Below are positions 35,939-50,157 of a stretch of DNA of 61,235 bases, in pieces. The notes beneath the pieces are model-generated. The model was given only the letters and a program-made list of their open reading frames with translations, did not search any database and was not told the DNA's origin. The DNA lies in assembly GCA_038063615.1 (NCBI GenBank), contig JBBTUT010000010.1, forward strand, positions 12,035 through 73,269, given 5' to 3'. How positions within the stretch are numbered: position 1 is the first letter of the stretch; every line of letters starts with the position of its first letter. This stretch comes from Patescibacteria group bacterium. GTDB lineage: Bacteria; Patescibacteriota; Minisyncoccia; Phycocordibacterales; UBA1550. The translations under genes were made by a program, and so were the position numbers.

Positions 35939-36106
35939 CTATTTCGGCGCTGATGTCCAATGCTTTCCGTTTGCACAAAGACCATCCTTGAAGTCAACGG
36001 CTGCGCACAGATAGGACCTCCTATCGTCGTTGCAATTACCCTCTTTTGTTACAGAGCCACAGGAGCTACAATCTTTTTTCAGTTTTTCTGTCTTCAGAAA
36101 AATCAC
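35939..36106 (-). CDS. Possible Cys-rich mini-protein, start codon uncertain
   Basis: AAAAAGGAGG SD; in-frame GTG overlaps the SD, CTG sits 8 nt after it; about 52 aa with CxxC and 3 more Cys; no ATG. Confidence 0.25.
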   Translation of the reverse strand: MIFLKTEKLKKDCSSCGSVTKEGNCNDDRRSYLCAAVDFKDGLCANGKHWTSAPK

Positions 36107-36132
36107 CTCCTTTTTCTAGAAAATGACTGCGT

Positions 36133-36558
36133 TTAGATCACATACAAATTGCTAATCTCTTGCAGTTCTTCCATTATCCTCTGCAAAGAACCTTCAATCT
36201 CAGAAATAATTCGCGAGGCATCCTTGAATTGCTCGTGTGGCGACTGGTCATTGACCAATCGTATTGAGTCATCCTTTGCCTCCTTTCTCATAACTTTCAG
36301 CCCAGAAGCGATAACATCGAGTTGCTGAGGAACTCCTTCAAGGAAGTCCTTGATCTCTTCAGGGACTGTCTCTTTCGTCTTTACGGCGGCAACGATCACC
36401 CGTAGATGATTGACCTCTTCCTGAAGAGAGTCGATATCGGTGAACAATGTTTCTACTATGACCTTACTGTTATTTCTCTCGCCGGCACACACGGTGCCTA
36501 TTGCGACAAAGAAAAAGAAACTGGCGAACATGAACATTCCGAAGATGTTTTTTCTCAT
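36133..36558 (-). CDS. Secreted coiled-coil protein
   Basis: Trimmed to MRKNIFGMFMFASFFFFVAIGTVCA signal peptide; helical remainder. Confidence 0.6.
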   Translation of the reverse strand: MRKNIFGMFMFASFFFFVAIGTVCAGERNNSKVIVETLFTDIDSLQEEVNHLRVIVAAVKTKETVPEEIKDFLEGVPQQLDVIASGLKVMRKEAKDDSIRLVNDQSPHEQFKDASRIISEIEGSLQRIMEELQEISNLYVI

Positions 36559-36588
36559 ATCCTCTCCCTCCATTATGGATAAAAAAGG

Positions 36589-36978
36589 TTATCCGCCGCT
36601 TTTGGGCTTATCCCCATTTTGCTCTCTCAAGCTAATCTCGTGGCGCGCCAACATCATGCGGACGGCGCCTTCGCTTTTCTTCAAAACAAAAGCCAACTCC
36701 TTGGAAGTTTCGTGCCGCTCTACGAGCGTCAGCAAAACTTTCCTCTCCACCTCCCCCATTACCTCTTCAAGCATTTTACCATTCTCAATCTCGTCTGCAA
36801 GGGAAGACAAAGAGATTGCTGACGGGTCCACGCCGTTCCACCTCCCATGTTTCATCATCCTGATACACTTTGATAACTCGTCTGCCAGCTTGGCCGCCTG
36901 ATAGACGCTCACCGCAGGAACAATGATCTCTCTTACCTGCTTTGTTTCTACCTTTTCCTCTCCGATTTCTTCGTTCAT
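36589..36978 (-). CDS. Small HTH protein (sigma-70 region-4-like)
   Basis: Trimmed to MNEEIGEE with AAGGAGGGGG SD; ERKVLLTLVERHETSKELAFVLKKSEGAVRMMLARH resembles region 4 / LuxR-type HTH. Confidence 0.6.
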   Translation of the reverse strand: MNEEIGEEKVETKQVREIIVPAVSVYQAAKLADELSKCIRMMKHGRWNGVDPSAISLSSLADEIENGKMLEEVMGEVERKVLLTLVERHETSKELAFVLKKSEGAVRMMLARHEISLREQNGDKPKSGG

Positions 36979-37020
36979 ATCCCCCTCCTTTTTTAAGAAC
37001 TTTTTTTGAAATCTTCCGCC

Positions 37021-37049
37021 ATGATACCATACCGCAGTACCTCTGTCAA
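37021..37049 (-). promoter_or_regulatory. Sigma-70-type promoter for 36978..36133
   Basis: minus strand TTGACA-17 nt-TATCAT. Confidence 0.6.
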
Positions 37050-37071
37050 ACTTTTTTGTATTTAGAATCGC

Positions 37072-37108
37072 AAAAAACAACCCGACCTCTCGCGAAGTCG
37101 AGTCGTGC
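37072..37108 (-). terminator. Intrinsic terminator (3' part of module C, copy a)
   Basis: minus strand ACTCGAC-ttcgcgagag-GTCGGGT then TGTTTTTTG. Confidence 0.65.
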
Positions 37109-37120
37109 TATTTCCCAAAA

Positions 37121-37161
37121 TTTTCAAAAAGAACATAGGATTGACCTCCATCCCGAGGAGC
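37121..37161 (-). repeat. Module C conserved core (pseudoknot-like), copy a
   Basis: minus strand GCTCCTCGGGATGGAGGTCAATCCTATGTTCTTTTTGAAAA, identical at 43783..43824. Confidence 0.7.
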
Positions 37162-37211
37162 GCTCTTTTGGCAAAGCGCACGAAGCCGAAGTCGTCTACT
37201 GAGATCATGTT

Positions 37212-37430
37212 TCATCGAGTTAAAGCATGGTGGACAATTTCCCCCTGTGCATCATATGCGTGAAGATCACCGCTGCAAGCGTCACATCGGCGCCAGACAA
37301 GTTCGCATTGATCACAAACATACTCTCCATAAACATGGTCGATGCAAAGTAAATTGCCTCCGCACCGGCACTTCAGCTCGCTGCCACCAAAACTCCAACC
37401 TTTCTGAATTATCTCGCTTTTTGCAAACAT
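37212..37430 (-). CDS. Small zinc-ribbon protein
   Basis: 72 aa; CRCGG...C, CDQC, CDAC. Confidence 0.65.
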   Translation of the reverse strand: MFAKSEIIQKGWSFGGSELKCRCGGNLLCIDHVYGEYVCDQCELVWRRCDACSGDLHAYDAQGEIVHHALTR

Positions 37431-37452
37431 AGATTCTCCATACCCTCTTCAA

Positions 37453-37490
37453 AACCCACCTGCCGATTGTTCGGTTCAGGACTTACGGTT
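37453..37490 (-). promoter_or_regulatory. 5' UTR stem-loop U1, copy a
   Basis: minus strand AACCgtaagtCCTGaaCCGAacaaTCGGCAGGtgGGTT just upstream of SD. Confidence 0.7.
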
Positions 37491-37512
37491 CATATTTTTT
37501 TGAAAGAACTAA

Positions 37513-37563
37513 TCTGTTTCGTCTTTTCAGACTCATCAGTCGAGATACGCATCTCGATACAGA
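37513..37563 (-). ncRNA. Type III hammerhead ribozyme (HHR-a)
   Basis: minus strand TCTGTA|TCGAGA-tgcgta-TCTCGA CTGATGA GTCT-GAAA-AGAC GAA ACAGA; cleavage after A (complement of 37558). Confidence 0.85.
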
Positions 37564-37686
37564 GAGCATTTTTACGCGTGCTCAGCGCGGATGGTTTTGT
37601 CTCGGTTCATCAACCGGAGGGCTCTGCTTCCCTTGGGCTCCACATTTTATCATCAAGAAAAAGTGGACAAAGACTCTAGGATTTAG
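37564..37686 (-). repeat. Module M (structured domain 5' of the hammerhead), copy a
   Basis: about 125 nt shared with 38921, 40958, 48082, 50510, 49421; helices TTTGTC/GACAAA, TCCAC/GTGGA, AGGG/CCCT, CGGTT/AACCG, GAGCA/TGCTC. Confidence 0.75.
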
Positions 37687-37740
37687 CGCGAGGAGTTACC
37701 TCATTCAAACACCTCCTTTATTACTTCAATGAATTTATAC

Positions 37741-38106
37741 TTAGCGGTATCGAGAACCCGCTGAACAGCTGCAAGGATAGCTTCCCTCAGGTCCTTCTGC
37801 ACTATACTCTGTGACCCTGCCAGTGTCATCGCATGCTCTACATTTTGGCTCTTTGATTCTTTCTACTGTTTCTTTGTGCGCTTGTGCTATTAGTCGCGCA
37901 AGGTCATTCAGGGTAATTTCGCCCTTACCGTTGCATAGATTACAAACTTTTGCTACCTTGCCGGTGCCGCGACATTCATTGCAGGAAGTACTTTCCCCAT
38001 AATATCTGCTATCTTTATAGACATCTACTTTGCCCTTCCCGTAGCACTTCCGACACTCTACAAGGAATTTCCCTTTACCTTCACAAGCTTCGCACATCTC
38101 TTTCAT
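37741..38106 (-). CDS. DnaJ-CR-type zinc-finger repeat protein
   Basis: 121 aa from MKEMCEACEGKG; five CxxCxGxG-like units. Confidence 0.75.
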   Translation of the reverse strand: MKEMCEACEGKGKFLVECRKCYGKGKVDVYKDSRYYGESTSCNECRGTGKVAKVCNLCNGKGEITLNDLARLIAQAHKETVERIKEPKCRACDDTGRVTEYSAEGPEGSYPCSCSAGSRYR

Positions 38107-38447
38107 GTCCCCTCCTTTTTTATTTGTTCCTCTGCTATTTTGCCCGTTCCCCTGCATTTACTGCAATGCCTAATCCATGACTGCTCTTTTATAACATGGT
38201 CATTATACTGAGAGCTATTAGCAAGCTCTATTCCCCAAACATGACCCGTTCCTTCGCATTTATCACATTTGCACCTCTGGCACACAATCGCCCCTTCACC
38301 GCTTCCGCCACAATCACAACACTTCTCTGTCCAACATTCACCAAAACCATCTTTATGGTAGGTCTTTCCTTTCCCGTTGCACTGCCTACAAACTTTCACT
38401 ATCTCGATCTCGCCTACACCCTTGCATTCATCACATATTCTCGCCAT
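38103..38447 (-). CDS. DnaJ-CR-type zinc-finger repeat protein (paralog)
   Basis: 114 aa; CDECKGVG, CRQCNGKG, CCDCGGSG, CDKCEGTG, CSKCRGTG; stop overlaps the next start (ATGA). Confidence 0.75.
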   Translation of the reverse strand: MARICDECKGVGEIEIVKVCRQCNGKGKTYHKDGFGECWTEKCCDCGGSGEGAIVCQRCKCDKCEGTGHVWGIELANSSQYNDHVIKEQSWIRHCSKCRGTGKIAEEQIKKEGT

Positions 38448-38502
38448 AATTTTCCCTCCTTCGCCTAAAGTCCGTCGGCTTTTATTTGTTTTTCAAAGAT
38501 CT

Positions 38503-38583
38503 TCTGATTTCGTCCTGCCTTCGCCAGCCTCCTTCCGGCTTTGTTTTTGGACTCGTCAGCGCCAGTCTCACTGGCGAATCAGA
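38503..38583 (-). ncRNA. Type III hammerhead ribozyme, extended stem II variant (HHR-b)
   Basis: minus strand TCTGATT|CGCCAG-tgaga-CTGGCG CTGACGA GTCC...GCCGG-aaggagg-CTGGC...GGAC GAA ATCAGA. Confidence 0.75.
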
Positions 38584-38869
38584 GAAGGTTTTTAGAGAAC
38601 CTTCCGAAACTCTTACCACTATGAGAGTTTTTTACGAGACTCTCTTAAACTCGGCATAGTTCCATGCGCTCCGACCGCGCGGTCCCACTGTCGGACAAAG
38701 AAAGATGACTGACTTGCTACCATGCTTGGCAAGCTTCATCCTCTCTGGGCTAAGTTTGATACCGACGACAGTTAAGTGCTTAGCTAAATTTCTGTCGTGG
38801 GCCGCTGATCGAGCGGCAAACTCAAGAGCTTATTTATTTTCCTCCTTTCAAGTCTTTGCAAAGAACTCA

Positions 38870-38920
38870 TCTGTTTCGTCTTTTAAGACACATCAGCGCA
38901 GACACTCATCTGCGGACAGA
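38870..38920 (-). ncRNA. Type III hammerhead ribozyme with A9U core substitution (HHR-c)
   Basis: minus strand TCTGTC|CGCAGA-tgagtg-TCTGCG CTGATGT GTCT-TAAA-AGAC GAA ACAGA. Confidence 0.7.
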
Positions 38921-39040
38921 GAGCATTTTTACGCATGCTCAGTGCGGATGATTTTGTCTCGGCTCATCAACCGGAGGGCTCTGCTTCCCTTGGGCTCCAC
39001 ATTTTATCATCAAGAAAAAGTGGACAAAGACTCTTTAGGA
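38921..39040 (-). repeat. Module M, copy c
   Basis: near-identical to 37564..37686. Confidence 0.75.
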
Positions 39041-39071
39041 TAATGAGCACTGTCGCGCTATTTTGCTCTTT

Positions 39072-39275
39072 TTATTTTTGCCAAAAAGAGCACCTGGTAC
39101 AGGTAGCGGCTATCCGTTCAGCAGTCCAAAGATGTGGGTTCTTGATTGCGCGTACCCAGCGTGTACATCTTTTGCGAGCATCACGCTTGAATAACTCAGC
39201 CTTGCCACAACCATCAAACGGTTGAAGGGATTTTACGGTCCCCTTTCCACAAGTTACAGCTCCCCAATCCATCAT
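39072..39275 (-). CDS. Small Cys-containing protein
   Basis: 67 aa; GAGGAGG SD; first gene after the 39403 promoter. Confidence 0.55.
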   Translation of the reverse strand: MMDWGAVTCGKGTVKSLQPFDGCGKAELFKRDARKRCTRWVRAIKNPHLWTAERIAATCTRCSFWQK

Positions 39276-39402
39276 ATTTCCTCCTCGTTTTAAGCCCGTC
39301 GGCTGTTATTTGACTCTTTCAAAGAACTGCTTGTTTCCTCCTTGAAGAAAGGTACCATACCTGCAATATAGTTGCTGAGGTTTTTAGATGATTTGTGGTA
39401 AA

Positions 39403-39408
39403 ATTATA
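39403..39408 (-). promoter_or_regulatory. -10 box (TATAAT) of a candidate promoter for the 39275-to-37212 unit
   Basis: minus strand ctgTATAAT; weak -35; lies in the divergent spacer. Confidence 0.4.
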
Positions 39409-39480
39409 CAGATAGGCAAAAATGGCTTAAAACAAATGGTTTTTAAAGGGTTGGGGTAAAAAAACTGTTGACGAAAAAAT

Positions 39481-39510
39481 TTGACAAGTAATGCGGAAAT
39501 CGCTTACAAT
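39481..39510 (+). promoter_or_regulatory. Sigma-70-type promoter for the TrmB-like gene
   Basis: TTGACA-18 nt-TACAAT; preceded by aaaaactgttgacgaaaaaatt, a motif also present at 41881..41902. Confidence 0.6.
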
Positions 39511-39531
39511 TTAAAGAAGTTACACAATAAT

Positions 39532-40266
39532 ATGGCTCTCTCAAAATTTTTAGATTCAATAGGACTCGATGAAAAAGACCAGAAAGTATACTTGGCTCTT
39601 TTAAAATTAGTCGATGCGCCAATTTCAAGGATAGCCAAAGTGTCAGGAATTCAACGCACAACGGCATATTATCGTATAGAGAAATTAATAAAACTTGGGC
39701 TTGCTTCCAGCTATCGTCACCACAATGTAAAGCGATTTGTTGCTGAAAATCCAAACAAGATAAGAGGCGTATTGGAAAGCAAGATGCTAATGCTGGATAA
39801 GTATTTACCGGAGTTGCAAACCGTTTCTCTTGAAAGAAAATTGGTTAATTTGAGGCTTTTTGAAGGGATAGGGGGGAGGAAGCAGATGATAGAGGAAGAA
39901 TTAAATTGCAAAGAAAAAATTGTCCGCTCTATTGGATATGCCCGTGATTTGAGAAAGGTCCAAGGTGGCAGTATGGGATTTTCCAAAAGACGAATAGAGA
40001 AAAAAGTTTTTTCAAAATGTTTGCGTCCGCAAGATGATGAGTTTGACAAGGAATGGTTAGCTAGCCAACAAAAAGAATTACGGGAGGTACGGCTGCTGCC
40101 ACCGGGGACGAAACCGTCGGGGATGATCTTTGTCTTTGACAACAAAATAAGCATTATCGCTCCCGAAGAAGAGGAAGGGATAGGATTTCTTATTGAGAGC
40201 AAGAGCTTGAGCGCGACAATGAAATCAATTTTTGATGTATTGTGGGAAATGAGCAGGAGAACATAG
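39532..40266 (+). CDS. TrmB-family transcriptional regulator
   Basis: Trimmed to MALSKFLDSIGLDEKDQKVYLALLKL...; N-terminal wHTH like 53086..53865. Confidence 0.75.
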   Translation: MALSKFLDSIGLDEKDQKVYLALLKLVDAPISRIAKVSGIQRTTAYYRIEKLIKLGLASSYRHHNVKRFVAENPNKIRGVLESKMLMLDKYLPELQTVSLERKLVNLRLFEGIGGRKQMIEEELNCKEKIVRSIGYARDLRKVQGGSMGFSKRRIEKKVFSKCLRPQDDEFDKEWLASQQKELREVRLLPPGTKPSGMIFVFDNKISIIAPEEEEGIGFLIESKSLSATMKSIFDVLWEMSRRT

Positions 40267-40307
40267 CCAACGCATAGCAGGTATCTCCACTAGCACTATA
40301 TTTGTTT

Positions 40308-40850
40308 TTACCATCCCTCTCTTCCTAATATCAAATCTGCATGCTGTTTCATTGGTTCAATATGTTTTTTATGCGACGCTTCCACTTGCGTTGAATGTTT
40401 GATGACCTCCGCCTCAGATCTGCCCCTTTCATTATCGCGTTTGATTCTGCGCGCAAGACGCTCATCAGTTGGTGTGTCTATAAATATTTTCAAATTCCCA
40501 ATCTGTCTTAATGTATCGTGCAGAGCGAATACTCCCTCCACGACAACCAGCCCCGATTTAGCAGGAATAATTTTTATTTGCCCAACCCTTTCAGATGTGA
40601 CCATATCGTATTCCGGGACAAACACTTCTTTCCCGCCGGCAAGATTCAGTGCCATTTTGGCGCATTCATCCAAGTCCACGGCGCAGGGATCATCAAAATC
40701 ATATTCTCCGTTTTCCATCGGTATCATCTTTGACTTTCCTATATAAAAATTATCCGTACTTATGATTGCGGCATCCCCGAATTTTTTGGCCAAAGTTGAT
40801 TTACCCGATCCGCTTCCACCACAAATTAAAATTATTTGTCCTTTTTCCAT
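40308..40850 (-). CDS. Uridine kinase / PRK-family P-loop kinase
   Basis: 180 aa; ICGGSGSGKSTLAKKF, VVVEG, FIDTPTDERLARRIKRDNERGRS. Confidence 0.75.
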   Translation of the reverse strand: MEKGQIILICGGSGSGKSTLAKKFGDAAIISTDNFYIGKSKMIPMENGEYDFDDPCAVDLDECAKMALNLAGGKEVFVPEYDMVTSERVGQIKIIPAKSGLVVVEGVFALHDTLRQIGNLKIFIDTPTDERLARRIKRDNERGRSEAEVIKHSTQVEASHKKHIEPMKQHADLILGREGW

Positions 40851-40906
40851 AGTTTCTATTTTTTAATTATCACTTTTTTGAAAATAATTTTCAATGTCTT
40901 TAAAAA

Positions 40907-40957
40907 TCTGTTTCGTCTTTTCAGACTCATCAGCGCAGACACTCATCTGCGGACAGA
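40907..40957 (-). ncRNA. Type III hammerhead ribozyme (HHR-d)
   Basis: minus strand TCTGTC|CGCAGA-tgagtg-TCTGCG CTGATGA GTCT-GAAA-AGAC GAA ACAGA. Confidence 0.85.
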
Positions 40958-41080
40958 GAGCATTTTTACGCGTGCTCAGTGCGGATGATTTTGTCTCGGT
41001 TCATCAACCGGAGGGCTCTGCTTCCCTTTGGCTCCACATTTTATCATCAAGAAAAAGTGGACAAAGACTCTAGGATTTAG
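40958..41080 (-). repeat. Module M, copy d
   Basis: near-identical to copies a and c. Confidence 0.75.
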
Positions 41081-41153
41081 TGTTTGGAATTACTTCATTT
41101 CACGCATCTCCTTAAGGAGCACTCTTTTAAGGCAAAGTGCACGAAGCCGTTTA

Positions 41154-41645
41154 TTATGGCCAATGATCATCAGCTCCACTGCTGCAAGTTTCTATTTCGT
41201 CATCGCGGGTTGTTGTTATTTCTTTTTTCGTTAACACCTCCCTTTTAAGAAGACTTTTAAGATGGATATAGTTTTCGCTGTCTTTTTCCCAAATGTCATT
41301 TTTGCACTTTATGCATCGATAGTAGACATGAAACTTTTCAACTCCCCGAGTGGCGTAGCCAATTGTATAAGTACCATAACTCATTCTACGGCGTTCATGC
41401 TCAGTTCTTTTCTTGCATTTAGGACATACTATCGTTGTTTCCACCGCCGTTGTCTCTATCGTCAACAAAAACCCGTGGTATTTTGCGAGAGACGGCTTTA
41501 TGCGGTTATTGCATTTTTTGCATTCATAGAAAATCTTGTACCCGTAGAAGAAGTTCGCATCTATATGTATCTCTCCATGCTCTGTTCTTTCTTTGCACTT
41601 AGAACATTCGATCGTTATTTTGGTTTCACTTTTTATTTCTTGCAT
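41154..41645 (-). CDS. Tandem zinc-ribbon protein (internal duplication)
   Basis: 163 aa; CSKCKERTEH...YECKKCNNRI repeated as CPKCKKRTEH...YRCIKCKNDI. Confidence 0.7.
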   Translation of the reverse strand: MQEIKSETKITIECSKCKERTEHGEIHIDANFFYGYKIFYECKKCNNRIKPSLAKYHGFLLTIETTAVETTIVCPKCKKRTEHERRRMSYGTYTIGYATRGVEKFHVYYRCIKCKNDIWEKDSENYIHLKSLLKREVLTKKEITTTRDDEIETCSSGADDHWP

Positions 41646-41695
41646 TTTCTCCTCCCTTTTCGTTTGAAGTTAACTTGCTTTTCGGTTTTCAAAGA

Positions 41696-41760
41696 TCTCC
41701 TGATTTCGTCCTGCCTTCGCCGGCCTCCTTCCGGTTTTGATTTTTGGACTCGTCAGTTCC
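41696..41760 (-). ncRNA. 5'-truncated hammerhead (HHR-e): core, stem II and stem III 3' strand only
   Basis: minus strand ttggaaCTGACGA GTCC...CCGG-aaggagg-CCGG...GGAC GAA ATCAGGAGA; no stem I hairpin or cleavage-site strand upstream. Confidence 0.55.
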
Positions 41761-41767
41761 AAAAGCG

Positions 41768-41773
41768 ATTATA
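41768..41773 (-). promoter_or_regulatory. -10 box (TATAAT) of a candidate promoter for the 41645-to-40308 unit
   Basis: minus strand ttgtcTATAATcgctttt; predicted start falls just before the truncated hammerhead core. Confidence 0.4.
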
Positions 41774-41965
41774 GACAATTTCTTATAAACTTACCGAGAA
41801 TTACTACTAACTGATTACAAATTAATTTACTCTGTCATAAAAACGGCTTCGTTGAGCCATTTTTATGAGTTCCCCATCAAAAAACTGTTGACGAAAAAAT
41901 TGGACAGCGACTGGAAATATCTTAATTTTCTTGTCTTTTTTTAACTAACCTTTTATAATATAGCT

Positions 41966-43222
41966 ATGATAAAAGAATCATTCCATAATTTAGAAAAAGC
42001 CCAATCGGAGGCGGAAAAAATAAAAGGACTGGTCGGAGAAAAAGGTGAGAGTGAGGACTACGCCACGGCAGAAAAACTTTTAGAAGAAGCTGGCGAAATA
42101 GAGCTGGTGGATTTCGACGCTGAAGAAAGCGGTGGTGTTGAAGCGCAAGTAGAAAAAACGACGCCATCCATCATTCCTGAAAAACAAAAAGCAGAAACAG
42201 TGAAACGAGAGCCAAAACCGTATGCCTACAAAGAAATAGATCGACTCGGAGAGCAACTTTCTAATTTCAAGAAAAATGCGAGGGGCGCGCGTAGCAAAGA
42301 GACTCGAAATGCCAATGAAGAAAAAATTAAATTTTTCAGAGAGGAATTAGAAAAAGCAAAAATAGCCAGAAAGGACATCAATGAGAAGATAGAAAACAGA
42401 AATTCAAAATTTGAAAGATTGCTTAAAGATAAATTTGAAGATCTTAAAGATGGAACATGGGAATCAAGTATACCGGAAATTGATTCTGTTCAGGTCTACA
42501 AAGACAAGCCCAGAGAGGAAGGCAAGGTAGAATCTCTCGGCATAAATGTTTTCTGGGGAAAAGACGGGGAAACACACACTGCGCATTTTAAACTTTTGAA
42601 AGATGGTACATTGGTGGGCAAAATGCCGATAGAAAGAGGATTGAATATCGACAAAGATGAGCTTTTTGACGATGTTTTGCACACTATCGAAACAGTAGAT
42701 ATGTCGTTTTTTGAGAATATTAGCAAGAAGATTTTACGCTCCAAACCATCATCTGATAGGCATCCTCATATCGACGGAGTACATACCCCAACTCCAGAGA
42801 AGCCGGACGAAAAAAGAAAACCAAAAGATCCTAGACGCCTAGAATTTATGGGAAACCATGGAAAGGTTCTTTTTGGCATCACAGAAGAGGGATACAACTT
42901 TAATGGTTATTACGGGTTTGTTTTTCCAAATTTTTTAGTATTGGAAAACGAGAAAATCGGTAATGCCGCCATTTTTATTGATTTTGAAAACCCTATCGAC
43001 ATTGACCCGAAAAGATTTAAATTGCCACCAAAAAGAAGAATGACCAAAGAGGAAAGGATGAAAACTCTGAAAGATAACATAGAAAAATACATAAACCTAG
43101 ATGGAGATCAGCTTGAAAAGATGGGGGCAGAAAGAAAGCCTCATCCGCATATGGATAATGAAAAATGGGAAGAAAAAATGAGGCTACGAATAGACACGAG
43201 ATTGACAAAAATAGAAAATTAG
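41966..43222 (+). CDS. Hypothetical Lys/Glu-rich protein
   Basis: 418-aa ORF; no recognisable motif. Confidence 0.6.
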   Translation: MIKESFHNLEKAQSEAEKIKGLVGEKGESEDYATAEKLLEEAGEIELVDFDAEESGGVEAQVEKTTPSIIPEKQKAETVKREPKPYAYKEIDRLGEQLSNFKKNARGARSKETRNANEEKIKFFREELEKAKIARKDINEKIENRNSKFERLLKDKFEDLKDGTWESSIPEIDSVQVYKDKPREEGKVESLGINVFWGKDGETHTAHFKLLKDGTLVGKMPIERGLNIDKDELFDDVLHTIETVDMSFFENISKKILRSKPSSDRHPHIDGVHTPTPEKPDEKRKPKDPRRLEFMGNHGKVLFGITEEGYNFNGYYGFVFPNFLVLENEKIGNAAIFIDFENPIDIDPKRFKLPPKRRMTKEERMKTLKDNIEKYINLDGDQLEKMGAERKPHPHMDNEKWEEKMRLRIDTRLTKIEN

Positions 43223-43276
43223 TATATCGTACTGGTAGTTGTTTTTTTGTAAATCATCAATCAAAAGGAGGGTTTT

Positions 43277-43504
43277 ATGGAAAAGACGGAATTGATTGCC
43301 TGTCACCGAACAGCAGGAAACGACACAATAACCAGAGAGGTATTTTGTAAGTTGGTGGATGTTTTATTGAAATATGCTCCGGACCATGTACGCAATTTTT
43401 TCAAGGATTTTGCCAATGATCCCGAGACAACCGATGGCGAAATCCAAGAAATAACAGATGTCATGCTCAATAAGCTTAATGAGAACACTATCGCCCAATG
43501 TTAA
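43277..43504 (+). CDS. Hypothetical small protein
   Basis: 75 aa; AAGGAGGG SD; followed by a terminator. Confidence 0.55.
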   Translation: MEKTELIACHRTAGNDTITREVFCKLVDVLLKYAPDHVRNFFKDFANDPETTDGEIQEITDVMLNKLNENTIAQC

Positions 43505-43525
43505 CATTGGGCGATTTTTATTTCG
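43490..43525 (+). terminator. Intrinsic terminator
   Basis: cgcccaatgttaacattgggcg palindrome then atttttattt. Confidence 0.75.
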
Positions 43526-43732
43526 GCTAGCATACTCCAAGAGTCATCCTGCTGGACGAGTACTCTCGTACACAGCGTCCGAGCGACGACGAAATATAGG
43601 TACAATACCGCGCGAGAAAAGCGAGCTCCGACAATACCCCGGGGCTATGCCCCGAGGAACCTTTATTGGCTGGGAAAATTGGATAGTCAAGCTCAAAAAA
43701 GGAAGAATGTGCGCAAGAAAGCAGGCTTCTTT

Positions 43733-43767
43733 AAACAAACAACCCAGCCTCTTGCGAAGCCGGGTTG
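43733..43767 (-). terminator. Intrinsic terminator (3' part of module C, copy b)
   Basis: minus strand CAACCCGGC-ttcgcaagag-GCTGGGTTG then TTTGTTT. Confidence 0.6.
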
Positions 43768-43782
43768 TACAATATTTCAAAA

Positions 43783-43824
43783 TTTTTCAAAAAGAACATA
43801 GGATTGACCTCCATCCCGAGGAGC
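43783..43824 (-). repeat. Module C conserved core, copy b
   Basis: identical core to 37121..37161. Confidence 0.7.
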
Positions 43825-43854
43825 CTTCTGTAGTAAAGACACAAACTGGGGTTT

Positions 43855-44172
43855 CTAGCAGTGATAGACATCACACCATGGATGTCTGCCTTCGCTAGTA
43901 TATGCAAGCTTCTCTTCGTCGCTTGCATATTTCGCGACCCTAATCTCAAAAGCGGAGTAAAAGAACTCTCCGTCAAGGAGACTTGCCTGCCCATTTACTT
44001 CCACTTCTCTTCCCAATAACTCTGAAAGAGGTGGCAGCTCAGCGTCCCCGTATTCTATGGCGAGATATTTGCCAGTTGGATGGCATTTCATCACCACGCT
44101 ATTCAGGTCTTCGCCTATAATTTTTCCTGAACAATTAAAATCAACCCAACCCTTATCTACTTCTTTTTTCAC
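43855..44172 (-). CDS. Hypothetical protein
   Basis: 105 aa; GTG start; no motif. Confidence 0.5.
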   Translation of the reverse strand: MKKEVDKGWVDFNCSGKIIGEDLNSVVMKCHPTGKYLAIEYGDAELPPLSELLGREVEVNGQASLLDGEFFYSAFEIRVAKYASDEEKLAYTSEGRHPWCDVYHC

Positions 44173-44226
44173 CTCTCTACCCCCATTCGTTTAAAGCCCG
44201 TCGGCTATATTTTTTTGAAAGAACAA

Positions 44227-44294
44227 ATCTCTGCAAGATTTCAAATTATCTCTAACTTAAAATCTTGATAAAGATGGCAAGTTTCTGACTTGCC
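44227..44294 (-). repeat. Double-hairpin module H2+H1, copy 1
   Basis: H1 44227..44275 (atctctgcaagattt...aaatcttgataaagat), H2 44276..44294 (ggcaagt-ttctg-acttgcc). Confidence 0.75.
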
Positions 44295-44358
44295 AAAAAG
44301 TTGACCGCTACTTTAAGGAGTGTTCTTTAAGCAAAACACACAAAGCTGTAAGCTTGTT

Positions 44359-44745
44359 TCACTCTGTATTTGATTTTATCCTGACCGAGTATCCCACTAT
44401 AAGTTCCTTAAATGCCGTTACCATTTTTAAGGAATTATTAGCGACATATTCCCAATCATTTCTCTCTGCTATTAAAGCTTTCACAGCATTGGATAGTCCC
44501 CTGTCCAATTGCTGCTGGCGAGTTTTCGCCAGCAATTCACATAGTGGTGGTGCCATATCTTCGTAAAAAGCTAGCGCAGGATGTTTTAGGACTGGTATTA
44601 CAGTTACCAAGAAAAAATCTAGATCCGAGCGATAATTGTGCTTTGGTATCGATATTTTCTTCAATATTTCCTCTGTTCTTGGCAGTACAGACCCTCCAAA
44701 CTCGTACAAAAAGGCACCACAAACTGCTCCTGCTCCTATTCCCAT
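44359..44745 (-). CDS. Hypothetical protein
   Basis: Trimmed to MGIGAGAVCGAF with AAGGAGG SD. Confidence 0.5.
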   Translation of the reverse strand: MGIGAGAVCGAFLYEFGGSVLPRTEEILKKISIPKHNYRSDLDFFLVTVIPVLKHPALAFYEDMAPPLCELLAKTRQQQLDRGLSNAVKALIAERNDWEYVANNSLKMVTAFKELIVGYSVRIKSNTE

Positions 44746-44808
44746 CTTTCTGCCTCCTTTTTTCAAATTCCTCCGCTATAAAAATAGCGAGGTGAACTTA
44801 CTAGCAGA

Positions 44809-44870
44809 AGGATAGCATATCGCCACATATTTGTCAAGCATTTGACAAAATTAAGAATATGATATATATT
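44809..44870. promoter_or_regulatory. Back-to-back divergent promoters sharing a TTGTCAAgcaTTTGACAA palindrome
   Basis: minus strand TTGACA(44837..44832)-17-TATCCT; plus strand TTGACA(44842..44847)-17-TATATT. Confidence 0.6.
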
Positions 44871-44910
44871 GCACTCAGATATGTTAAATTAAATCAATAA
44901 GGAGGGCAGG

Positions 44911-45108
44911 ATGCACGGAAAAAATAAATTTATAGAGCCATTAAGAGAAACGGTTAAGCGAATCATTGCGGAGCGAAACCATGGGCTAGGATGCATATGC
45001 GATGATTGCCTGATATTTGAGCTTTTAGGTGCTCAAGACGCCAAAGAGCAAACTCCAGGATCGTTTTTGTTGGAACGCAAAGCGGACAACAATACACCGC
45101 TTAATTAA
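44911..45108 (+). CDS. Hypothetical small protein
   Basis: 65 aa; AAGGAGGG SD. Confidence 0.5.
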   Translation: MHGKNKFIEPLRETVKRIIAERNHGLGCICDDCLIFELLGAQDAKEQTPGSFLLERKADNNTPLN

Positions 45109-45974
45109 AGAAAGTGCGGCAAAGAATGTTTCCAGAATCGAGAGGCCTGCTTAAGGCCTCTTTTTTTTATTTCATCTTCCTTTTGTTTTAAAATATCCTG
45201 TATTATGTTGAGTGCTTTTTCAAGTTTTTGAGGAGCGAGAGAATGTTGTGGCTTATTATTTCGAATAAGTTCCTCATTGAGCCTTTTGACAAATAAAAGT
45301 TGGTCTTGAAAATTCTGAACAATTTCCTCGAGGAACCCAAATTGTAATGGATGTGTCGCCTTATCAATGCTTTTATCGGCGATATTCTTGCAAAGCTCCT
45401 CAAGTTGATCTTTCTTTATTTGAACAATTGCACGAGGAATATTTTCTATTGCACCCTTGGTTTTGCTTATTTCAGAATAATAATATTTCAGATCCGTAAG
45501 TTTTCCATCAGATAGTCTCGTTCTTAATGATCTGTATTTATCTTCAAGAACCCCTTGATCTTCTGAAATAGTCAAGTCGATGGCTATTCTCTCAAACGAA
45601 TCATCTTCTTGTGAAATTTCCAATACGAAATCACTACCTCTTTTTATATCATCAAATTCGCTGGTCAAAATGACATTTGTTTCATAGCCAAGCCAACACG
45701 ACCGCTCCCCTTCCTCATAAAAAATCCCCGCCGCAATCAACGCACGCCCATGTTGCTCCCTAAATTTCGGATCTTTTTTAATTCTCTCAATCTCCCTTTT
45801 ATCTTTTTCAATTTCCTCTTTTGAATACAAACCTTCAAAATCCTCCATTTTTGGAGCTTCGACTTTCAGTACGCCATCGACATATTTTTCCATCGCTTTG
45901 TCCTCCGCCATTGTTAACGGAGGTTCTTTGGCTAAAAATTTATTCTCAAAAGCAACATCAGGTCTCATATTCAT
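45105..45974 (-). CDS. Hypothetical protein
   Basis: 289-aa acidic, helical ORF; own promoter (TTGGCA-15-tgaTATACT at 46069..46043). Confidence 0.6.
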   Translation of the reverse strand: MNMRPDVAFENKFLAKEPPLTMAEDKAMEKYVDGVLKVEAPKMEDFEGLYSKEEIEKDKREIERIKKDPKFREQHGRALIAAGIFYEEGERSCWLGYETNVILTSEFDDIKRGSDFVLEISQEDDSFERIAIDLTISEDQGVLEDKYRSLRTRLSDGKLTDLKYYYSEISKTKGAIENIPRAIVQIKKDQLEELCKNIADKSIDKATHPLQFGFLEEIVQNFQDQLLFVKRLNEELIRNNKPQHSLAPQKLEKALNIIQDILKQKEDEIKKRGLKQASRFWKHSLPHFL

Positions 45975-46089
45975 ATAATTAATTTAGTTTAAATGTTCGA
46001 CACTATGCTATCTAAAATCTCATAATCCACACTAGTACTTTCAGTATATCATTTTTGCTGTTGTGCCAAAACTTGCTATGACCCGAGCC

Positions 46090-46122
46090 AAATAAAAAAA
46101 ACGGCACTTTTGAAAAGTGCCG
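46090..46122 (-). terminator. Strong intrinsic terminator ending the long 52.6-to-46.1 kb unit
   Basis: minus strand GGCACTTTT-caa-AAGTGCC then GTTTTTTTTATTT. Confidence 0.8.
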
Positions 46123-46137
46123 CCTCGCAATTGGCTT

Positions 46138-46773
46138 CTATTCTATTTCCACCAATGCTTTTTCGGCAGTATAGCGCTGGATGCCGAGTTCTTTGCGCAT
46201 CTTGCGTATTATGCCGACCGGCTTATCTACGCAATCAGCGATCACGGTATCTGGCATGCGCCCTAGGAATGATTGGATCTTATCTTTCCAACCATCCACA
46301 CCCTCTTCGTGCGGATACGCAATGCCATTTTGTTTGAAAGCGTTTTTGATGCTCCCAAAATGGACGATTGCGGAATGATAGACCGCTGGATGCTTCTTGA
46401 GAAGCTCCTTCGGGCTAAACCCCTCTTTGCCCTTCATCTGGTCCAAGGTCTGTATCGCGCAGTAGAATTTCATCTCTGCGTGACCTATACCGTTCCGGCT
46501 TCTCGCCATTAGGTACGACACGAACCTTGACCCGCATTTCGGGCATCGCGTGGTGTAGTCCCGCGGGTCCTGATTGAACCCGCGAATGATCTCCGCCGGT
46601 GTCAGCGCGCGACCGCATTTCGGGCAATCACCCTTTGGCTTGTATTCTTCGCCACGGAGCTCTTGAATGAGCCCGAGTTTGAGAGCGATTTTATGCTCCG
46701 CCAAAAGCTGTGTTTCCAACACCGTTCGGTGCGTACTCCTGAAGTGGTGCCCTACCCTCAATGTCAATCCCAT
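46138..46773 (-). CDS. Zinc-ribbon protein
   Basis: 211 aa from ATG 46773; CPKCG...CPKCG. Confidence 0.65.
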   Translation of the reverse strand: MGLTLRVGHHFRSTHRTVLETQLLAEHKIALKLGLIQELRGEEYKPKGDCPKCGRALTPAEIIRGFNQDPRDYTTRCPKCGSRFVSYLMARSRNGIGHAEMKFYCAIQTLDQMKGKEGFSPKELLKKHPAVYHSAIVHFGSIKNAFKQNGIAYPHEEGVDGWKDKIQSFLGRMPDTVIADCVDKPVGIIRKMRKELGIQRYTAEKALVEIE

Positions 46774-46925
46774 CACCTCACCTCCTTTTTAATTTGTTTT
46801 TCCCGTTTTCTGCTATACCCCACCAAGCCTTTCTTGCTCGAATGGGCGCCACCACCATGATGACGAAGCTTAAAACAAACTGCCTCCGGAAGTCTCCTCC
46901 CGACTTTCAATCCAACCTTTTTCAT
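46773..46925 (-). CDS. Small basic protein, translationally coupled
   Basis: 50 aa; GGAGGTGGGAGA SD-ATG; stop overlaps the next ATG as TGATG; below the ORF-track size cut-off. Confidence 0.4.
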   Translation of the reverse strand: MKKVGLKVGRRLPEAVCFKLRHHGGGAHSSKKGLVGYSRKREKQIKKEVR

Positions 46926-46967
46926 TCTCCCACCTCCGCTATTTTTTTGGGACTCTTTTTCAAATCC

Positions 46968-47026
46968 CTTTTAGAAATTTCAAAACAAATTTAAAATTTC
47001 TAAAAGAAAGGCAAGTCTTGCTTGCC
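46968..47026 (-). repeat. Double-hairpin module H2+H1, copy 7 (divergent stem sequence)
   Basis: H1 cttttagaaattt-caaaacaaattta-aaatttctaaaag (13 bp perfect); H2 ggcaag-tcttg-cttgcc. Confidence 0.65.
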
Positions 47027-47035
47027 ACATAGCAG

Positions 47036-47209
47036 TTATTTTACATCGTACTCTGCTATTTTATGCTGATAGTCCGGAGATGGACCCCCGGTGCGATCCA
47101 GAGCATCTTGCACGGATTGTTCCGCCTTCTCACGGGAAGAGTACACTTCTACTATCATCCACCCACACCCCATGCAGTTCATCTGCCTTATAAAAACTTT
47201 TTCTACCAT
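47036..47209 (-). CDS. Hypothetical small protein
   Basis: 57 aa from MVEKVFIRQ; GGAGGTG SD. Confidence 0.5.
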   Translation of the reverse strand: MVEKVFIRQMNCMGCGWMIVEVYSSREKAEQSVQDALDRTGGPSPDYQHKIAEYDVK

Positions 47210-47228
47210 ATGCACCTCCACAAACTCA

Positions 47229-47267
47229 AACCCACCTGCCGATTTCTCGGTTCAGGACTTACGGGTC
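47229..47267 (-). promoter_or_regulatory. 5' UTR stem-loop U1, copy b
   Basis: aacccacctgccgatttctcggttcaggacttacgggtc. Confidence 0.7.
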
Positions 47268-47286
47268 GTATTTTTGAAAGAACAAA

Positions 47287-47350
47287 ATCTCTACAGAAGC
47301 ACAACTTGTGTTATGTTTCTGATAAAGACGAGGAGCGGTATTTGCTCCTC
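47287..47350 (-). repeat. Double-hairpin module H2+H1, copy 6 (covarying stem)
   Basis: H1 atctctacagaagc...atgtttctgataaagac; H2 gaggagc-ggtattt-gctcctc. Confidence 0.65.
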
Positions 47351-47357
47351 AAGAAGT

Positions 47358-47633
47358 TCACAGAAAAAATCTTTTGTGAACCCAGCTTGCCGCCAGAACC
47401 ATTGAGACAAGCCAAAGACATGGCCCCATTATGCCCAGTATCATGAACAAAATCATGAAAACAGCCAGCCCAATAAAAGGCAATGGGAAGCCAATCCTGA
47501 AAAAGAACTCATGCCATTCAGGATCATAAAATACCATGAACGGCATACCAAAGAGGTATTTTACTGCCCTCCATCCCAAAAACACGACGGCTACAAATAC
47601 TAAAATACTTAGTAGATTCGTCATCCTCTTCAT
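47358..47633 (-). CDS. Small membrane protein (3 TM)
   Basis: 91 aa from MKRMTNLLSILVF; GGAGGTGG SD. Confidence 0.6.
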   Translation of the reverse strand: MKRMTNLLSILVFVAVVFLGWRAVKYLFGMPFMVFYDPEWHEFFFRIGFPLPFIGLAVFMILFMILGIMGPCLWLVSMVLAASWVHKRFFL

Positions 47634-48030
47634 TCTTCCACCTCCATGCGTTTCCAGTCCGCCGACCATAATTTTGGGATTCTCTTTCAAATCCCTTTCA
47701 AAAAATTCAAGTTGTTAAAATCTTTGAAAGGGAGAGGATGCGATATTTTGCATCCTCTCTGTGCAGTGTCATCTTATATCGCGTAAGATGACTTGGTTGA
47801 GACCCTCGCCTGTGACGATAGATTTTCTGATAGCTAGTCAGAATAATCACACAAGCAACCGGTACGGTCTCACCCATAGGTTTTTTTTGTGAGGTCTAAC
47901 GACCTCATTGAGTTTCCTATAACTCTCTCCGTGACGTACTTTGGGGCTGCACACCCTCCCTGTACCACAACATCTTCCAAAAAAATCATTTCAAAAAGAT
48001 GTTGTGGCGCAGGGAATTTTTAAAAGAACA

Positions 48031-48081
48031 TCTGTTTCGTCTTTTCAGACTCATCAGTCGAGATACACATCTCGAAACAGA
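48031..48081 (-). ncRNA. Type III hammerhead ribozyme (HHR-f)
   Basis: minus strand TCTGTT|TCGAGA-tgtgta-TCTCGA CTGATGA GTCT-GAAA-AGAC GAA ACAGA. Confidence 0.85.
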
Positions 48082-48300
48082 GAGCATTTTTACGCATGCT
48101 CAGTGCGGATGATATTCATTATCGGCGTTGAACTTACCGTGACAAACGCTCAAGTTTGTCAGGCAATAGGTTATTCTCATCAGCTTACCCTATTGCCACC
48201 AATTTTTACCGGACTGGCGCCGTGTCTATGATTTTGTCTCGGTTCATCAACCGGAAGGTTCTGCTCCCTTTAGGCTCTCCATTTTTTAAAACGGGGACAA
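48082..48300 (-). repeat. Module M, copy f, carrying a ~117-nt insertion (48114..48230)
   Basis: flanks match the other copies with compensatory AAGG/CCTT for AGGG/CCCT; the insert holds GGCAATAGG/CCTATTGCC and TGACAAAC/GTTTGTCA hairpins. Confidence 0.7.
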
Positions 48301-48316
48301 ATCAAACTAAGCGTCG

Positions 48317-48979
48317 TTAGTTGCCTAGCTTTTTCTCCCCAAGGAGTTTGGCAAGTATGTCTGCCCAGTCCTTCCCGTGCTGCGAGTAGGCGGTTCCAGT
48401 CCCATTGCAACGGTAGCACCCGTAGGTACCATCCTTGCCGGAGCCGGAACACTTCGCGCAGGTGCCTTGGGTCCCCTCAATACCAACCATGCCAACATAG
48501 TTAGTAAAGAGTGCCTTCGCGTTATGGAGCACGAAAATGGTGTTGTTCATCGCATCGAGCATCGCGCTCGCTGGATGATCGTGATGACCCATGTCGGTCA
48601 CCACCGCAACATACTTCGCGCCGCGAAGTGCCGCAGTGATGGCGAGTGCCCATCCAACAGACATTTCCTTCCCCACATGCTTGAGCCCCTCACCACCTTG
48701 AGTGGCCCGACCTGCTGGCATCAAGAGATCGCAGAGTACGACATCCCAATACGGAAGCCACGACTCTGCCTCAGCCTTCTTGTGTGCCGGCCATGACTCT
48801 ATCCCCTGACTCATGTACTCGGATTTAAGGGTCTTATACTTCTCATTATCCAGCTGTGGTTCAAGAAGCTCGAGCGCTTCGTCATGACTCCCCACAACCG
48901 TAAGGTCATGTAAAGCCCCAAGAACCTGCTGAGCTGAATTCTGGTGGTTTGCGCTGTCGTCGATTACTAATATTTTCAT
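48317..48979 (-). CDS. Receiver-like domain fused to CxxCxGxG zinc fingers
   Basis: 220 aa; MKILVIDDS... REC-like N-terminus; C-terminal CAKCSGSGKDGTYGCYRCNGTG. Confidence 0.7.
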   Translation of the reverse strand: MKILVIDDSANHQNSAQQVLGALHDLTVVGSHDEALELLEPQLDNEKYKTLKSEYMSQGIESWPAHKKAEAESWLPYWDVVLCDLLMPAGRATQGGEGLKHVGKEMSVGWALAITAALRGAKYVAVVTDMGHHDHPASAMLDAMNNTIFVLHNAKALFTNYVGMVGIEGTQGTCAKCSGSGKDGTYGCYRCNGTGTAYSQHGKDWADILAKLLGEKKLGN

Positions 48980-49057
48980 ATTAATCTCCTACCCCTGAAC
49001 CCGAGGTGCAGCTTGCGAAGAATTCGCATTTTTATTTATTTTATTTAAAAGAACAAA

Positions 49058-49122
49058 ATCTCTACAAGATTTCAAACACTCTGTTTAAAATCTTGATAAA
49101 GATGGCAAGTTTCTAACTTGCC
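49058..49122 (-). repeat. Double-hairpin module H2+H1, copy 2
   Basis: H1 49058..49103, H2 49104..49122. Confidence 0.75.
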
Positions 49123-49195
49123 AAAGGTTGACCTCCACCGTAGGAGTGTTCTTTAAGCAAAACACACAAAGCTCTTTTATCCACCTATTTTATTT

Positions 49196-49384
49196 TTATA
49201 TTTCCTCTCCTCCTAAAAACTTCCGCCCGTTACCGTCTGTCGTAATATCACCGATTGGATCTAGACTGAAGCCATTAAGCCTATCGAGAGAAGCTTGGCT
49301 CGCCACTGCTCCTTTTACTGCGAGAATGGCAAAAAATTTCTCGATATCCTCCACTTCTTCAACCTGCTCTTTTTTCTCGTTCAC
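49196..49384 (-). CDS. Hypothetical small acidic protein
   Basis: 62 aa from GTG 49384 with AAAGGAGGTG SD; the track ORF extends in frame into module M, taken as fortuitous. Confidence 0.45.
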   Translation of the reverse strand: MNEKKEQVEEVEDIEKFFAILAVKGAVASQASLDRLNGFSLDPIGDITTDGNGRKFLGGEEI

Positions 49385-49420
49385 TATCTTTCTCACCTCC
49401 TTTTTGTTTTTAACGGTCCC

Positions 49421-49512
49421 GACATTTTGTCTCGGTGTGTCAACCGGAGGGCTCTGCTTCCCTTTGGCTCCACATTTTATCATCAAGAAAAATGTGGATA
49501 AAAACTCTAGAC
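49421..49512 (-). repeat. Module M, copy h (subtype 2, no hammerhead attached)
   Basis: matches 50528..50626; CGGT-tgacac-ACCG replaces CGGTT-gatg-AACCG. Confidence 0.7.
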
Positions 49513-49527
49513 TATATTGATTACTTT

Positions 49528-50037: not shown

Positions 50038-50088
50038 TTCTCCCCCTCCTCGTTTCGAGCCCGTCGGCTATTTTTTTGAAAGAACAAA

Positions 50089-50157
50089 TCTCTACAAGAT
50101 TTCAAACACTCTGTTTAAAATCTTGATAAAGATGAGGAGCGATGCTGCCGCTCCTCA
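50089..50157 (-). repeat. Double-hairpin module H2+H1, copy 3
   Basis: H1 50089..50134, H2 gaggagcg-atgctgc-cgctcctc. Confidence 0.75.

Follow-up and report, generated by a model that had tools for sequence, protein, structure and literature searches.

A type III hammerhead with an expanded stem II, probably self-cleaving, upstream of zinc-finger genes in a Patescibacteria gene island

What is a hammerhead-like sequence, with a 41-nucleotide (nt) stem II that ends in a loop reading like a Shine–Dalgarno (SD) sequence, doing in the 5′ untranslated region (UTR) of two small zinc-finger genes? The question is raised by positions 38503–38583, minus strand, of a 61,235-nt stretch of a Patescibacteria group bacterium (contig JBBTUT010000010.1, assembly GCA_038063615.1), the whole of which is called the window here. 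Our answer is that the element is in good likelihood a genuine type III hammerhead, most likely self-cleaving, that acts as an intercistronic processing and insulating module. By its sequence it belongs to a hammerhead lineage common in Patescibacteria, with loop 2 expanded by a 33-nt insert that ends in a hairpin, and it is probably active as a self-cleaving RNA. Read on the minus strand from 38583 to 38503 it runs UCUGAU-U|CGCCAGU-GAG-ACUGGCG-CUGACGA-GUCC-AAAAACAAA-GCCGG-AAGGAGG-CUGGC-GAAGGCA-GGAC-GAA-AUCAGA, with the following parts (the six full versions mentioned are introduced below):

38584–38604, minus strand: 5′ flanking hairpin GAAGGUU-CUCUAAA-AACCUUC, directly adjoining stem III
38578–38583, minus strand: 5′ strand of stem III, UCUGAU, with U16.1 at 38578; pairs with 38503–38508
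38577, minus strand: H17 = U, by its position in the Rfam alignment; predicted scissile bond 38577/38576
38560–38576, minus strand: stem I hairpin CGCCAGU-GAG-ACUGGCG, 7 base pairs (bp), or 6 bp with loop UGAGA
38553–38559, minus strand: catalytic core strand C3–A9, CUGACGA (N7 = C), invariant in the six full versions
38512–38552 (41 nt), minus strand: stem II, a 4-bp base GUCC/GGAC around the 33-nt insert
38523–38539, minus strand: inner hairpin GCCGG-AAGGAGG-CUGGC, with the SD-like heptaloop at 38528–38534
38509–38511, minus strand: G12 A13 A14, from the sequence and the Rfam alignment
38503–38508, minus strand: 3′ strand of stem III, AUCAGA, with A15.1 at 38508 paired to U38578

As can be read from these parts, the core is complete (C3 U4 G5 A6 N7(C) G8 A9, G12 A13 A14, A15.1–U16.1 and H17 = U), with 13/13 conserved positions intact, and the topology is that of type III, stems I and II being closed by loops, stem III being open, and all three meeting in one three-way junction. 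Junction, core, closed stems I and II, open stem III and predicted cleavage 3′ of H17 are thus the same as in the type III hammerhead family of Rfam (RF00008), from which the variant differs in carrying the 33-nt insert at a place that the model fills with a loop of about 6 nt, in having C at N7 and in its AUU triplet. The insert comprises a 5′ internal loop (AAAAACAAA), the inner hairpin and a 3′ internal loop (GAAGGCA), and stem II is closed at the core by G10.1–C11.1 (G38552–C38512), a pair invariant in the six full versions. At a distance of 4 bp from the core, in the place taken by a GAAA loop in canonical copies, comes the A-rich internal loop; by eye no Watson–Crick complementarity was seen between loop 1 and the stem II internal loop. 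The sequence-only reading had proposed a hammerhead with an intact core tolerating any base at position 7, a 6-bp stem III with an AUU triplet, a stem II of about 40 nt ending in an AAGGAGG loop of the same sequence as the SDs of the island, and a location in the 5′ UTR of the two zinc-finger paralogs. All of this is borne out: CUGACGA, GAA, A15.1–U16.1 and H17 = U are read in place, as are stem III and the triplet on the minus strand, stem II measures 41 nt, the loop matches SDs such as GAAGGAGGG at 38454–38462, and the ribozyme ends 55 nt upstream of the ATG at 38447. Its further proposal, that of a second and distinct subtype, stands within the island; N7 = C and a long stem II, however, turn out to be common in Patescibacteria.

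A descriptor of our own (the complete core with U16.1, any H17 but G, and minimum stem lengths of 5, 4 and 5 bp) finds in the real window only the variant and four intact canonical hammerheads, and finds nothing in 300 first-order Markov simulations of the window, both strands included. A chance motif is thereby ruled out, since 0/300 simulated windows yield a match. The variant aligns to the full Rfam model Hammerhead_3 (RF00008, clan CL00010) over model positions 1–54 with 24.3 bits (E 0.0044 in a 301-nt search), 31 nt of stem II being treated as an insertion. In this covariance-model scoring, which the sequence-only reading had suggested, the alignment runs from end to end and the score lies below the gathering score of 48.5 bits; this shortfall is why standard annotation misses the variant, and whole-window Rfam searches do not have it among the matches reported. 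The RF00008 threshold is conservative for Patescibacteria, also known as the candidate phyla radiation (CPR), since four of the five canonical copies in the window (41.0–46.8 bits) and all hammerhead matches, with short or extended stem II, in the seven other CPR loci scanned (25–47 bits) fall below it as well. Conversely, a covariance model built from the variant alone retrieves extended-stem-II hammerheads together with the canonical copies of the window (E 1e-10 to 1e-5), and several of its matches are also recognised by Rfam.

Relatives of the variant were gathered by pattern scans and by look-ups of neighbouring proteins in related groundwater assemblies; the island proteins being too rare for direct protein searches, these relatives were reached through cluster members. 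We call the window element V1; V1 and V3–V7 are full versions (n = 6), and V2 and V8 are truncated. The other full versions are:

L111 3246–3327: V3
L121 855–937: V4
L133 82–162: V5
L261 383–463: V6
L258/L259/L260 1049–1131: V7

Over 22 pairs in six full versions, 132/132 pair cells are paired. The outermost pair of stem III, U–A in the window and C–G in the other five, is a compensatory double change, and so is a pair in stem I that is G–C in five versions and A–U in V7 (L258), while the inner hairpin shows three one-sided wobble changes (G–C to G·U twice and C–G to U·G once); all seven changed stem positions, that is, the two compensated pairs and the three wobbles, keep pairing. Column shuffles equal the observed pairing and changes in 14/500 cases, and sliding the 3′ partners leaves 19–45% paired. 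On the plus strand the G·U pairs would be A·C mismatches, which marks the minus strand as the functional one. The core is without change in the six full versions, where H17 is U in four and C in two and never G; the sole core change seen, G12 to A, sits in truncated V8 (L262), which has no cleavage site. The base of stem II is invariant, and variable positions concentrate in its two internal loops. The hammerhead fold of the variant lies 0.9 kcal/mol above the minimum free energy structure, with the canonical window copies behaving alike, and in V3–V5 it is the minimum free energy structure apart from one extra pair. Stems I and III and the hairpin inside stem II are thus backed by the comparative data; the substitution pattern is the one to be expected of a working hammerhead, with a statistical weight that is modest because the sample is small and its six versions are closely related.

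How unusual is the enlarged stem II? When representative genomes were scanned, 77 loci matched CUGACGA-GUCC-N15-45-GGAC-GAAA, among them about 20 full type III hammerheads, mostly in metagenome-assembled genomes (MAGs) of Saccharibacteria and other Patescibacteria. Together with loci found through the canonical core, the descriptor distinguishes about 18 families of stem II insert, 24–43 nt long, all with the same 7-bp stem I and GUCC/GGAC base and often with C at position 7; extended and short-stem-II copies occur together in loci L006, L033, L060, L062, L125 and L126. Going by these loci, the large stem II is one instance of a recurrent theme in the phylum, and N7 = C is not distinctive either. 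The extended Patescibacteria hammerheads (for example L062 523–604, L011 6012–6097, L125 4511–4589 and L033 5255–5327) resemble the variant in their 24–43-nt, hairpin-bearing insert and differ from it in that the insert sequences are unrelated, an SD-like GGAGG loop being confined to the window's family. Extended-stem-II CPR hammerheads score 31–42 bits in Rfam, below the gathering score; nearly all Patescibacteria hammerheads that we saw, short or extended (at 37500–51000 in the window and in L006, L011, L033, L062, L125 and L126), stay under 48.5 bits, only the canonical copy at 50457–50511 passing, so that routine annotation under-reports the ribozymes of this group. One of the insert families (L011 6012–6097, L062 523–604 and L066 6867–6954) has a GC-rich inner hairpin, GCCUCCGC...GCGGCGGGC, the stem of which contains an anti-SD-like CCUCC, opposite in polarity to the SD-like loop of the window. 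At L125 6482–6550 and L126 4909–4977, in two loci of uncultured bacteria retrieved through the canonical core, DUF3800-IX RNA (RF02968) scores above its gathering threshold beside hammerhead clusters.

The surroundings of the variant speak to what it may do. The ribozyme is followed by a leader and two overlapping genes:

38448–38502 (55 nt), minus strand: shared leader with the AGAUCUUUGAAAA motif, a small hairpin around GCCGACGGAC and then the true SD; belongs to repeat families D7 and D10
38103–38447, minus strand: zinc-finger paralog 1 (CXXCXGXG), 114 amino acids (aa), Pfam PF00684, from gene calls on identical contigs
37741–38106, minus strand: zinc-finger paralog 2 (CXXCXGXG), 121 aa, overlapping paralog 1

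The two paralogs are 30% identical (E 9e-09), and the true SD, AGGAGGG at 38454–38460, stands 6 nt upstream of the ATG. Both hammerhead types of the island lead into one and the same leader, which consists of (A/G)GWUCUUUSAAAA, a small hairpin around GCCGACGGGC and a strong SD. The variant itself is part of a conserved block of about 130 nt that begins with AAGAGUUUCG and the hairpin GAAGGUU-CUCUAAA-AACCUUC and ends with GAUCUUUGAAAA. With four full versions aligned together with their flanks, the block is 92–100% identical where the flanks, with differing neighbouring genes, are 25–45% identical; in the same four the 5′ flanking hairpin is 94–100% conserved along with the ribozyme, and it is also found upstream of V6 and V7. 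Only a few nt separate the module from the stop codon of a preceding same-strand gene in L121, L258 and L261. Downstream stand a 114-aa or 105-aa zinc-finger gene (V1, V5), a 107-aa zinc ribbon (V3), a 229/231-aa protein (V4, V7) or a 113-aa protein (V6), the 229/231-aa and 113-aa products having no Pfam family on record for the called genes; across assemblies at least five different genes are preceded by the variant module. L120, L262 and L263 carry homologous zinc-finger genes that lack the ribozyme and show a promoter-like region before the same leader. Since the downstream genes vary and homologous genes use the leader without it, the ribozyme is an optional, portable intercistronic module placed before a standard leader. 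The motif (A/G)GWTCTTTSAAAA is found at 38490–38502, 37493–37510, 50069–50090 and elsewhere on the minus strand, and also at L120 160–175, L132 640–652 and L262 1610–1623; it heads ribozyme-free leaders too, just 3′ of promoter-like regions, where it is followed by the small hairpin AAGCCGACGGGCUU and an SD. The motif is possibly a 5′ UTR element common to these leaders, or else an operator of the island.

Taking anatomy, non-chance occurrence, conservation and intercistronic position as observed, we infer cleavage, a transcript context and effects on mRNA stability or translation as follows. The element would lie in a minus-strand transcript, either read-through or polycistronic, and would cut itself on the 5′ side of stem I, between U38577 and C38576. 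The RNA upstream of the cut would then end in the hairpin 38604–38584 plus 7 nt (YCUGAUU) and a 2′,3′-cyclic phosphate. The zinc-finger mRNA would begin with a 5′-OH right at the stem I hairpin, followed by the extended stem II and by the 55-nt leader with its SD, a leader common to many genes of the island. 5′-OH ends and 5′-terminal hairpins hinder 5′-end-dependent RNases, and 3′ hairpins hinder 3′ exonucleases. The ribozyme would in this way give a shuffled gene cassette a defined, structured and probably nuclease-resistant 5′ end.

Several points weigh against an active processing module. The score of 24.3 bits is well under the gathering score of RF00008. In minimal hammerheads GUC and AUC make better substrates than AUU, and two relatives of the variant carry AUC. 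With a 9 × 7-nt internal loop in place of the GAAA loop 2, the loop 1–loop 2 tertiary contact, to which hammerheads owe fast cleavage at low Mg2+, appears uncertain. No promoter was identified for the read-through transcript. All versions are 92–98% identical, so that conservation may partly reflect recent spread, and the covariation amounts to only two double events. Finally, the same island holds dead copies, namely the G8-to-U copy at 38868–38922 and truncated V2, and decay of such elements therefore does happen.

What, then, of the SD-like loop? An alternative to a purely ribozymal role is that the exposed AAGGAGG hairpin is a functional leader element carried by the ribozyme, either a docking or standby site for the 30S ribosomal subunit or a 5′ stabiliser of the STAB-SD type; this seems to us possible and on balance improbable. 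In the docking version, the loop, about 45 nt from the new 5′ end after cleavage, would bind the anti-SD and protect the mRNA or feed the true SD 68 nt downstream, and in a further version, put forward in the sequence-only reading, 30S binding would modulate cleavage. The loop matches SDs of the island (GAAGGAGGG at 38454–38462 and others), is predicted to be unpaired (P 0.6–1.0 per nt) and has no ATG, GTG or TTG 3–12 nt downstream of it, which also disposes of a small open reading frame (ORF) started by the loop. None of the eight versions has a substitution in the loop, although V4 has gained a G, giving AAGGGAGG; the adjoining 7-nt internal loop varies at three positions. This invariance is not significant: by our count the 33-nt insert shows about 14 events, of which 1 falls in the loop against an expectation of about 3 (Poisson P ~0.2). 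Moreover, the 154 occurrences of GGAGG in the window are for the most part not SDs, 46 of them preceding an ORF of at least 40 aa; among the CPR loci collected, none of the other insert families of stem II, about 18 in number, contains GGAGG, and the canonical hammerheads of the same island do without an SD-like loop. Scans of genome, viral and metagenome collections for hammerheads with GGAAGGAGG in stem II returned only the variant's own family (relative L111) and chance matches. The 3′ end of the organism's 16S rRNA lies outside the window.

The two truncated copies bear on the same question:

41699–41756, or 41699–41773 with TATAAT included, minus strand: V2, repeat family D10
L262 131–195: V8, with TATAAT at L262 121–126 (plus strand) and G12 changed to A

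V2, upstream of a zinc-ribbon gene at 41154–41645, shows in order TATAAT (41768–41773), CGCUUUUGGAA, CUGACGA, a complete stem II insert with the AAGGAGG loop, and GAAAUCAGG; stem I and the 5′ strand of stem III being missing, it has no cleavage site. V2 and V8 share a TATAAT-CGCUYUUGGAA junction that places the TATAAT box 12 nt before CUGACGA. Their identity over the stem II hairpin is about 93%, and they are conserved from TATAAT onward and diverged upstream and in the flanks; no good −35 element was seen upstream of the TATAAT in these copies. Judging by this arrangement, the 5′ half of the ribozyme seems to have given way to a promoter in both. Unable to cleave, they nevertheless keep hairpin and loop directly downstream of the conserved TATAAT, a hint that the leader may have a use for the stem II hairpin apart from cleavage. 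A split or trans-acting hammerhead was considered for V2 and rejected, as no CCUGAU or stem I partner lies within 1 kb upstream, the arms have no above-chance targets in the window, and the sister relic V8 has G12 changed to A.

Carried to its fullest form, the docking idea would make the enlarged stem II a ribosome-docking hairpin whose SD mimic, within the first 75 nt of a 5′-OH mRNA, parks a 30S subunit and stabilises or primes the message; we consider this doubtful. With the same reserve, the hairpin would on that idea have been worth retaining as a leader element even after the cleaving half had given way to a promoter (V2, V8). STAB-SD or polypurine stabilisers at mRNA 5′ ends are known from Bacillus, in the cryIIIA and ermC leaders. 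The variant resembles them in having an SD-like polypurine sequence near the mRNA 5′ end, far upstream of the real SD and with no start codon after it, whereas the Bacillus elements are linear or weakly structured and not in a ribozyme. Most economically, the SD-like loop would be an idiosyncratic feature of one insert family.

A further alternative is that the variant is a recently inactivated fossil, in which the insert breaks the tertiary contact, the AUU site is poor and recombinational spread of the repeat module accounts for persistence. The low Rfam score and the clear dead copies in the island favour it, and the close similarity of the versions has left little time for decay. One such copy, at 38868–38922 and 284 nt upstream of the variant, has the core CUGAUGU, with the essential G8 changed to U, and a loop 2 of UAAA; a second strain (L111 2907–2961, plus strand) shares the G8-to-U change, and the copy is probably a dead ribozyme. 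A working hammerhead explains better that all seven changed stem positions keep pairing with the core untouched in six full versions, that H17 alternates between the allowed bases U and C, and that the diverged truncated copy V8 did gain a core mutation; similar-sized inserts, besides, occur in many CPR hammerheads that otherwise score 31–42 bits. We therefore think the fossil explanation unlikely. The copy at 38868–38922 is followed by an orphan SD-like sequence (38841–38845) with no ORF, and another orphan, at 39341, occupies a non-conserved position of a promoter-like region and so lends no support to a general role of orphan SDs.

Engineered aptazymes carry sensors on hammerhead stems, and the variant might by analogy be a natural allosteric ribozyme, its stem II insert sensing a ligand or a protein (zinc-finger, TrmB or KilA-N) and switching cleavage. 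Four of the six distinct genes directly downstream of the module, truncated copies included, do encode zinc-finger or zinc-ribbon proteins. The internal loops that would form the binding pocket are, however, the most variable part of the element, and no Rfam aptamer or other family matches in the region, which makes a sensing extension unlikely; with an inner hairpin of only 5 bp and downstream genes that are not constant (the 229/231-aa and 113-aa proteins), we give it very little credence. That the inner hairpin and a T-run form an intrinsic terminator on the plus strand, with the hammerhead likeness incidental, has next to nothing in its favour and is rejected: V2 is flagged as terminator-like on that strand (GCCGGCCTCCTTCCGGT then TTTGATTTTT), yet the wobble pairs of V1, V6 and V7 become A·C mismatches there, V1 is not flagged, no convincing plus-strand gene ends at the variant, and the intact core, stems I and III and the compensatory changes would be left unexplained.

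Set against what is known, the variant, regarded as a processing and insulating hammerhead, is a known ribozyme class in an already known kind of genomic arrangement. In RiboJ-type insulators, engineered from a plant satellite RNA ribozyme, a type III hammerhead in the 5′ UTR trims upstream RNA and leaves a standard leader with a hairpin before the SD. The arrangement in the window is like that of these and other engineered devices joining a hammerhead to a ribosome-binding site, with the differences that it is natural and that its SD-like sequence lies in the stem II loop and is not masked by a ribozyme stem. Our literature search found no paper linking hammerheads to Patescibacteria and none on natural SD-like loops in stem II. 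Clustered bacterial hammerheads in prophage-like regions flank single genes, and arrays of them cut polycistronic RNA in vitro (Perreault et al. 2011, PMC3088659). The present island is like those clusters in having several same-strand hammerheads between small, mostly orphan genes, with flanked genes that vary between strains; it differs in its groundwater Patescibacteria host, in the mixture of two structurally different hammerhead types, and in that each hammerhead lies inside a longer conserved module with an upstream hairpin and the shared leader. The role of bacterial hammerheads is still largely unknown, and the locus offers a clean natural case, in which two types share a common leader, truncated copies are fused to TATAAT, and cassettes are shuffled from strain to strain around a module of about 130 nt. 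Two points are of moderate interest: type III hammerheads with large stem II inserts, below the Rfam threshold and missed by routine annotation, are abundant in Patescibacteria, and the SD-like hairpin has outlived the ribozyme in two promoter-fused copies. Should the loop bind ribosomes, self-cleavage would be linked to translation or mRNA stability in bacteria, and the docking idea, if true, would assign a concrete and testable function to a hammerhead of bacteria; should it not, we have here just a further example of a ribozyme class already known.

The variant shares its island with five canonical hammerheads:

50457–50511, 48029–48083, 40905–40959, 38868–38922 and 37511–37565, minus strand: canonical type III hammerheads, from Rfam matches

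These five lie within 13 kb and make up, with the variant, six hammerhead-like elements on the minus strand at 37.5–50.5 kb. All five have a 7-bp stem I, and four have the core CUGAUGA and a stem II reading GUCU-GAAA-AGAC. They form the 3′ end of a repeat of about 195 nt, seen at 37511–37705, 38868–39062 and 40905–41099 (minus strand), with partial copies near 48232–48319, 49425–49512 and 50540–50627. Its 88-nt 5′ part, which reads ...GUCCACUUUUUCUUGAUGAUAAAAUGUGGAGCCCAAGGGAAGCAGAGCCCUCCGGUUGAUGAACCGAGACAAAA on the minus strand, is 65–99% conserved and has no Rfam family match; it could be another structured RNA or a terminator module. The window, a chromosome segment, carries trigger factor, a PilB-type ATPase and tRNA-Gly (59848–59921); the PilB protein is 82–89% identical to MAG proteins of Nomurabacteria, Yonathbacteria, Minisyncoccia and Paceibacterota, which places the organism in Patescibacteria, and the sample comes from Hainich groundwater well H41 (0.1/0.2 μm filter fractions). 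At the island edges are genes for a KilA-N phage-type regulator, TrmB and Fic, and the island genes are mostly orphans, with 1–3 clusters out of 5.8 billion for each island protein (window 36000–52000). The ORFs scanned include no integrase, and viral contigs hold no copy of the variant. Between co-occurring strains of the same well the gene order around the conserved RNA modules differs, which suggests cassette shuffling by recombination at the repeated intergenic modules.

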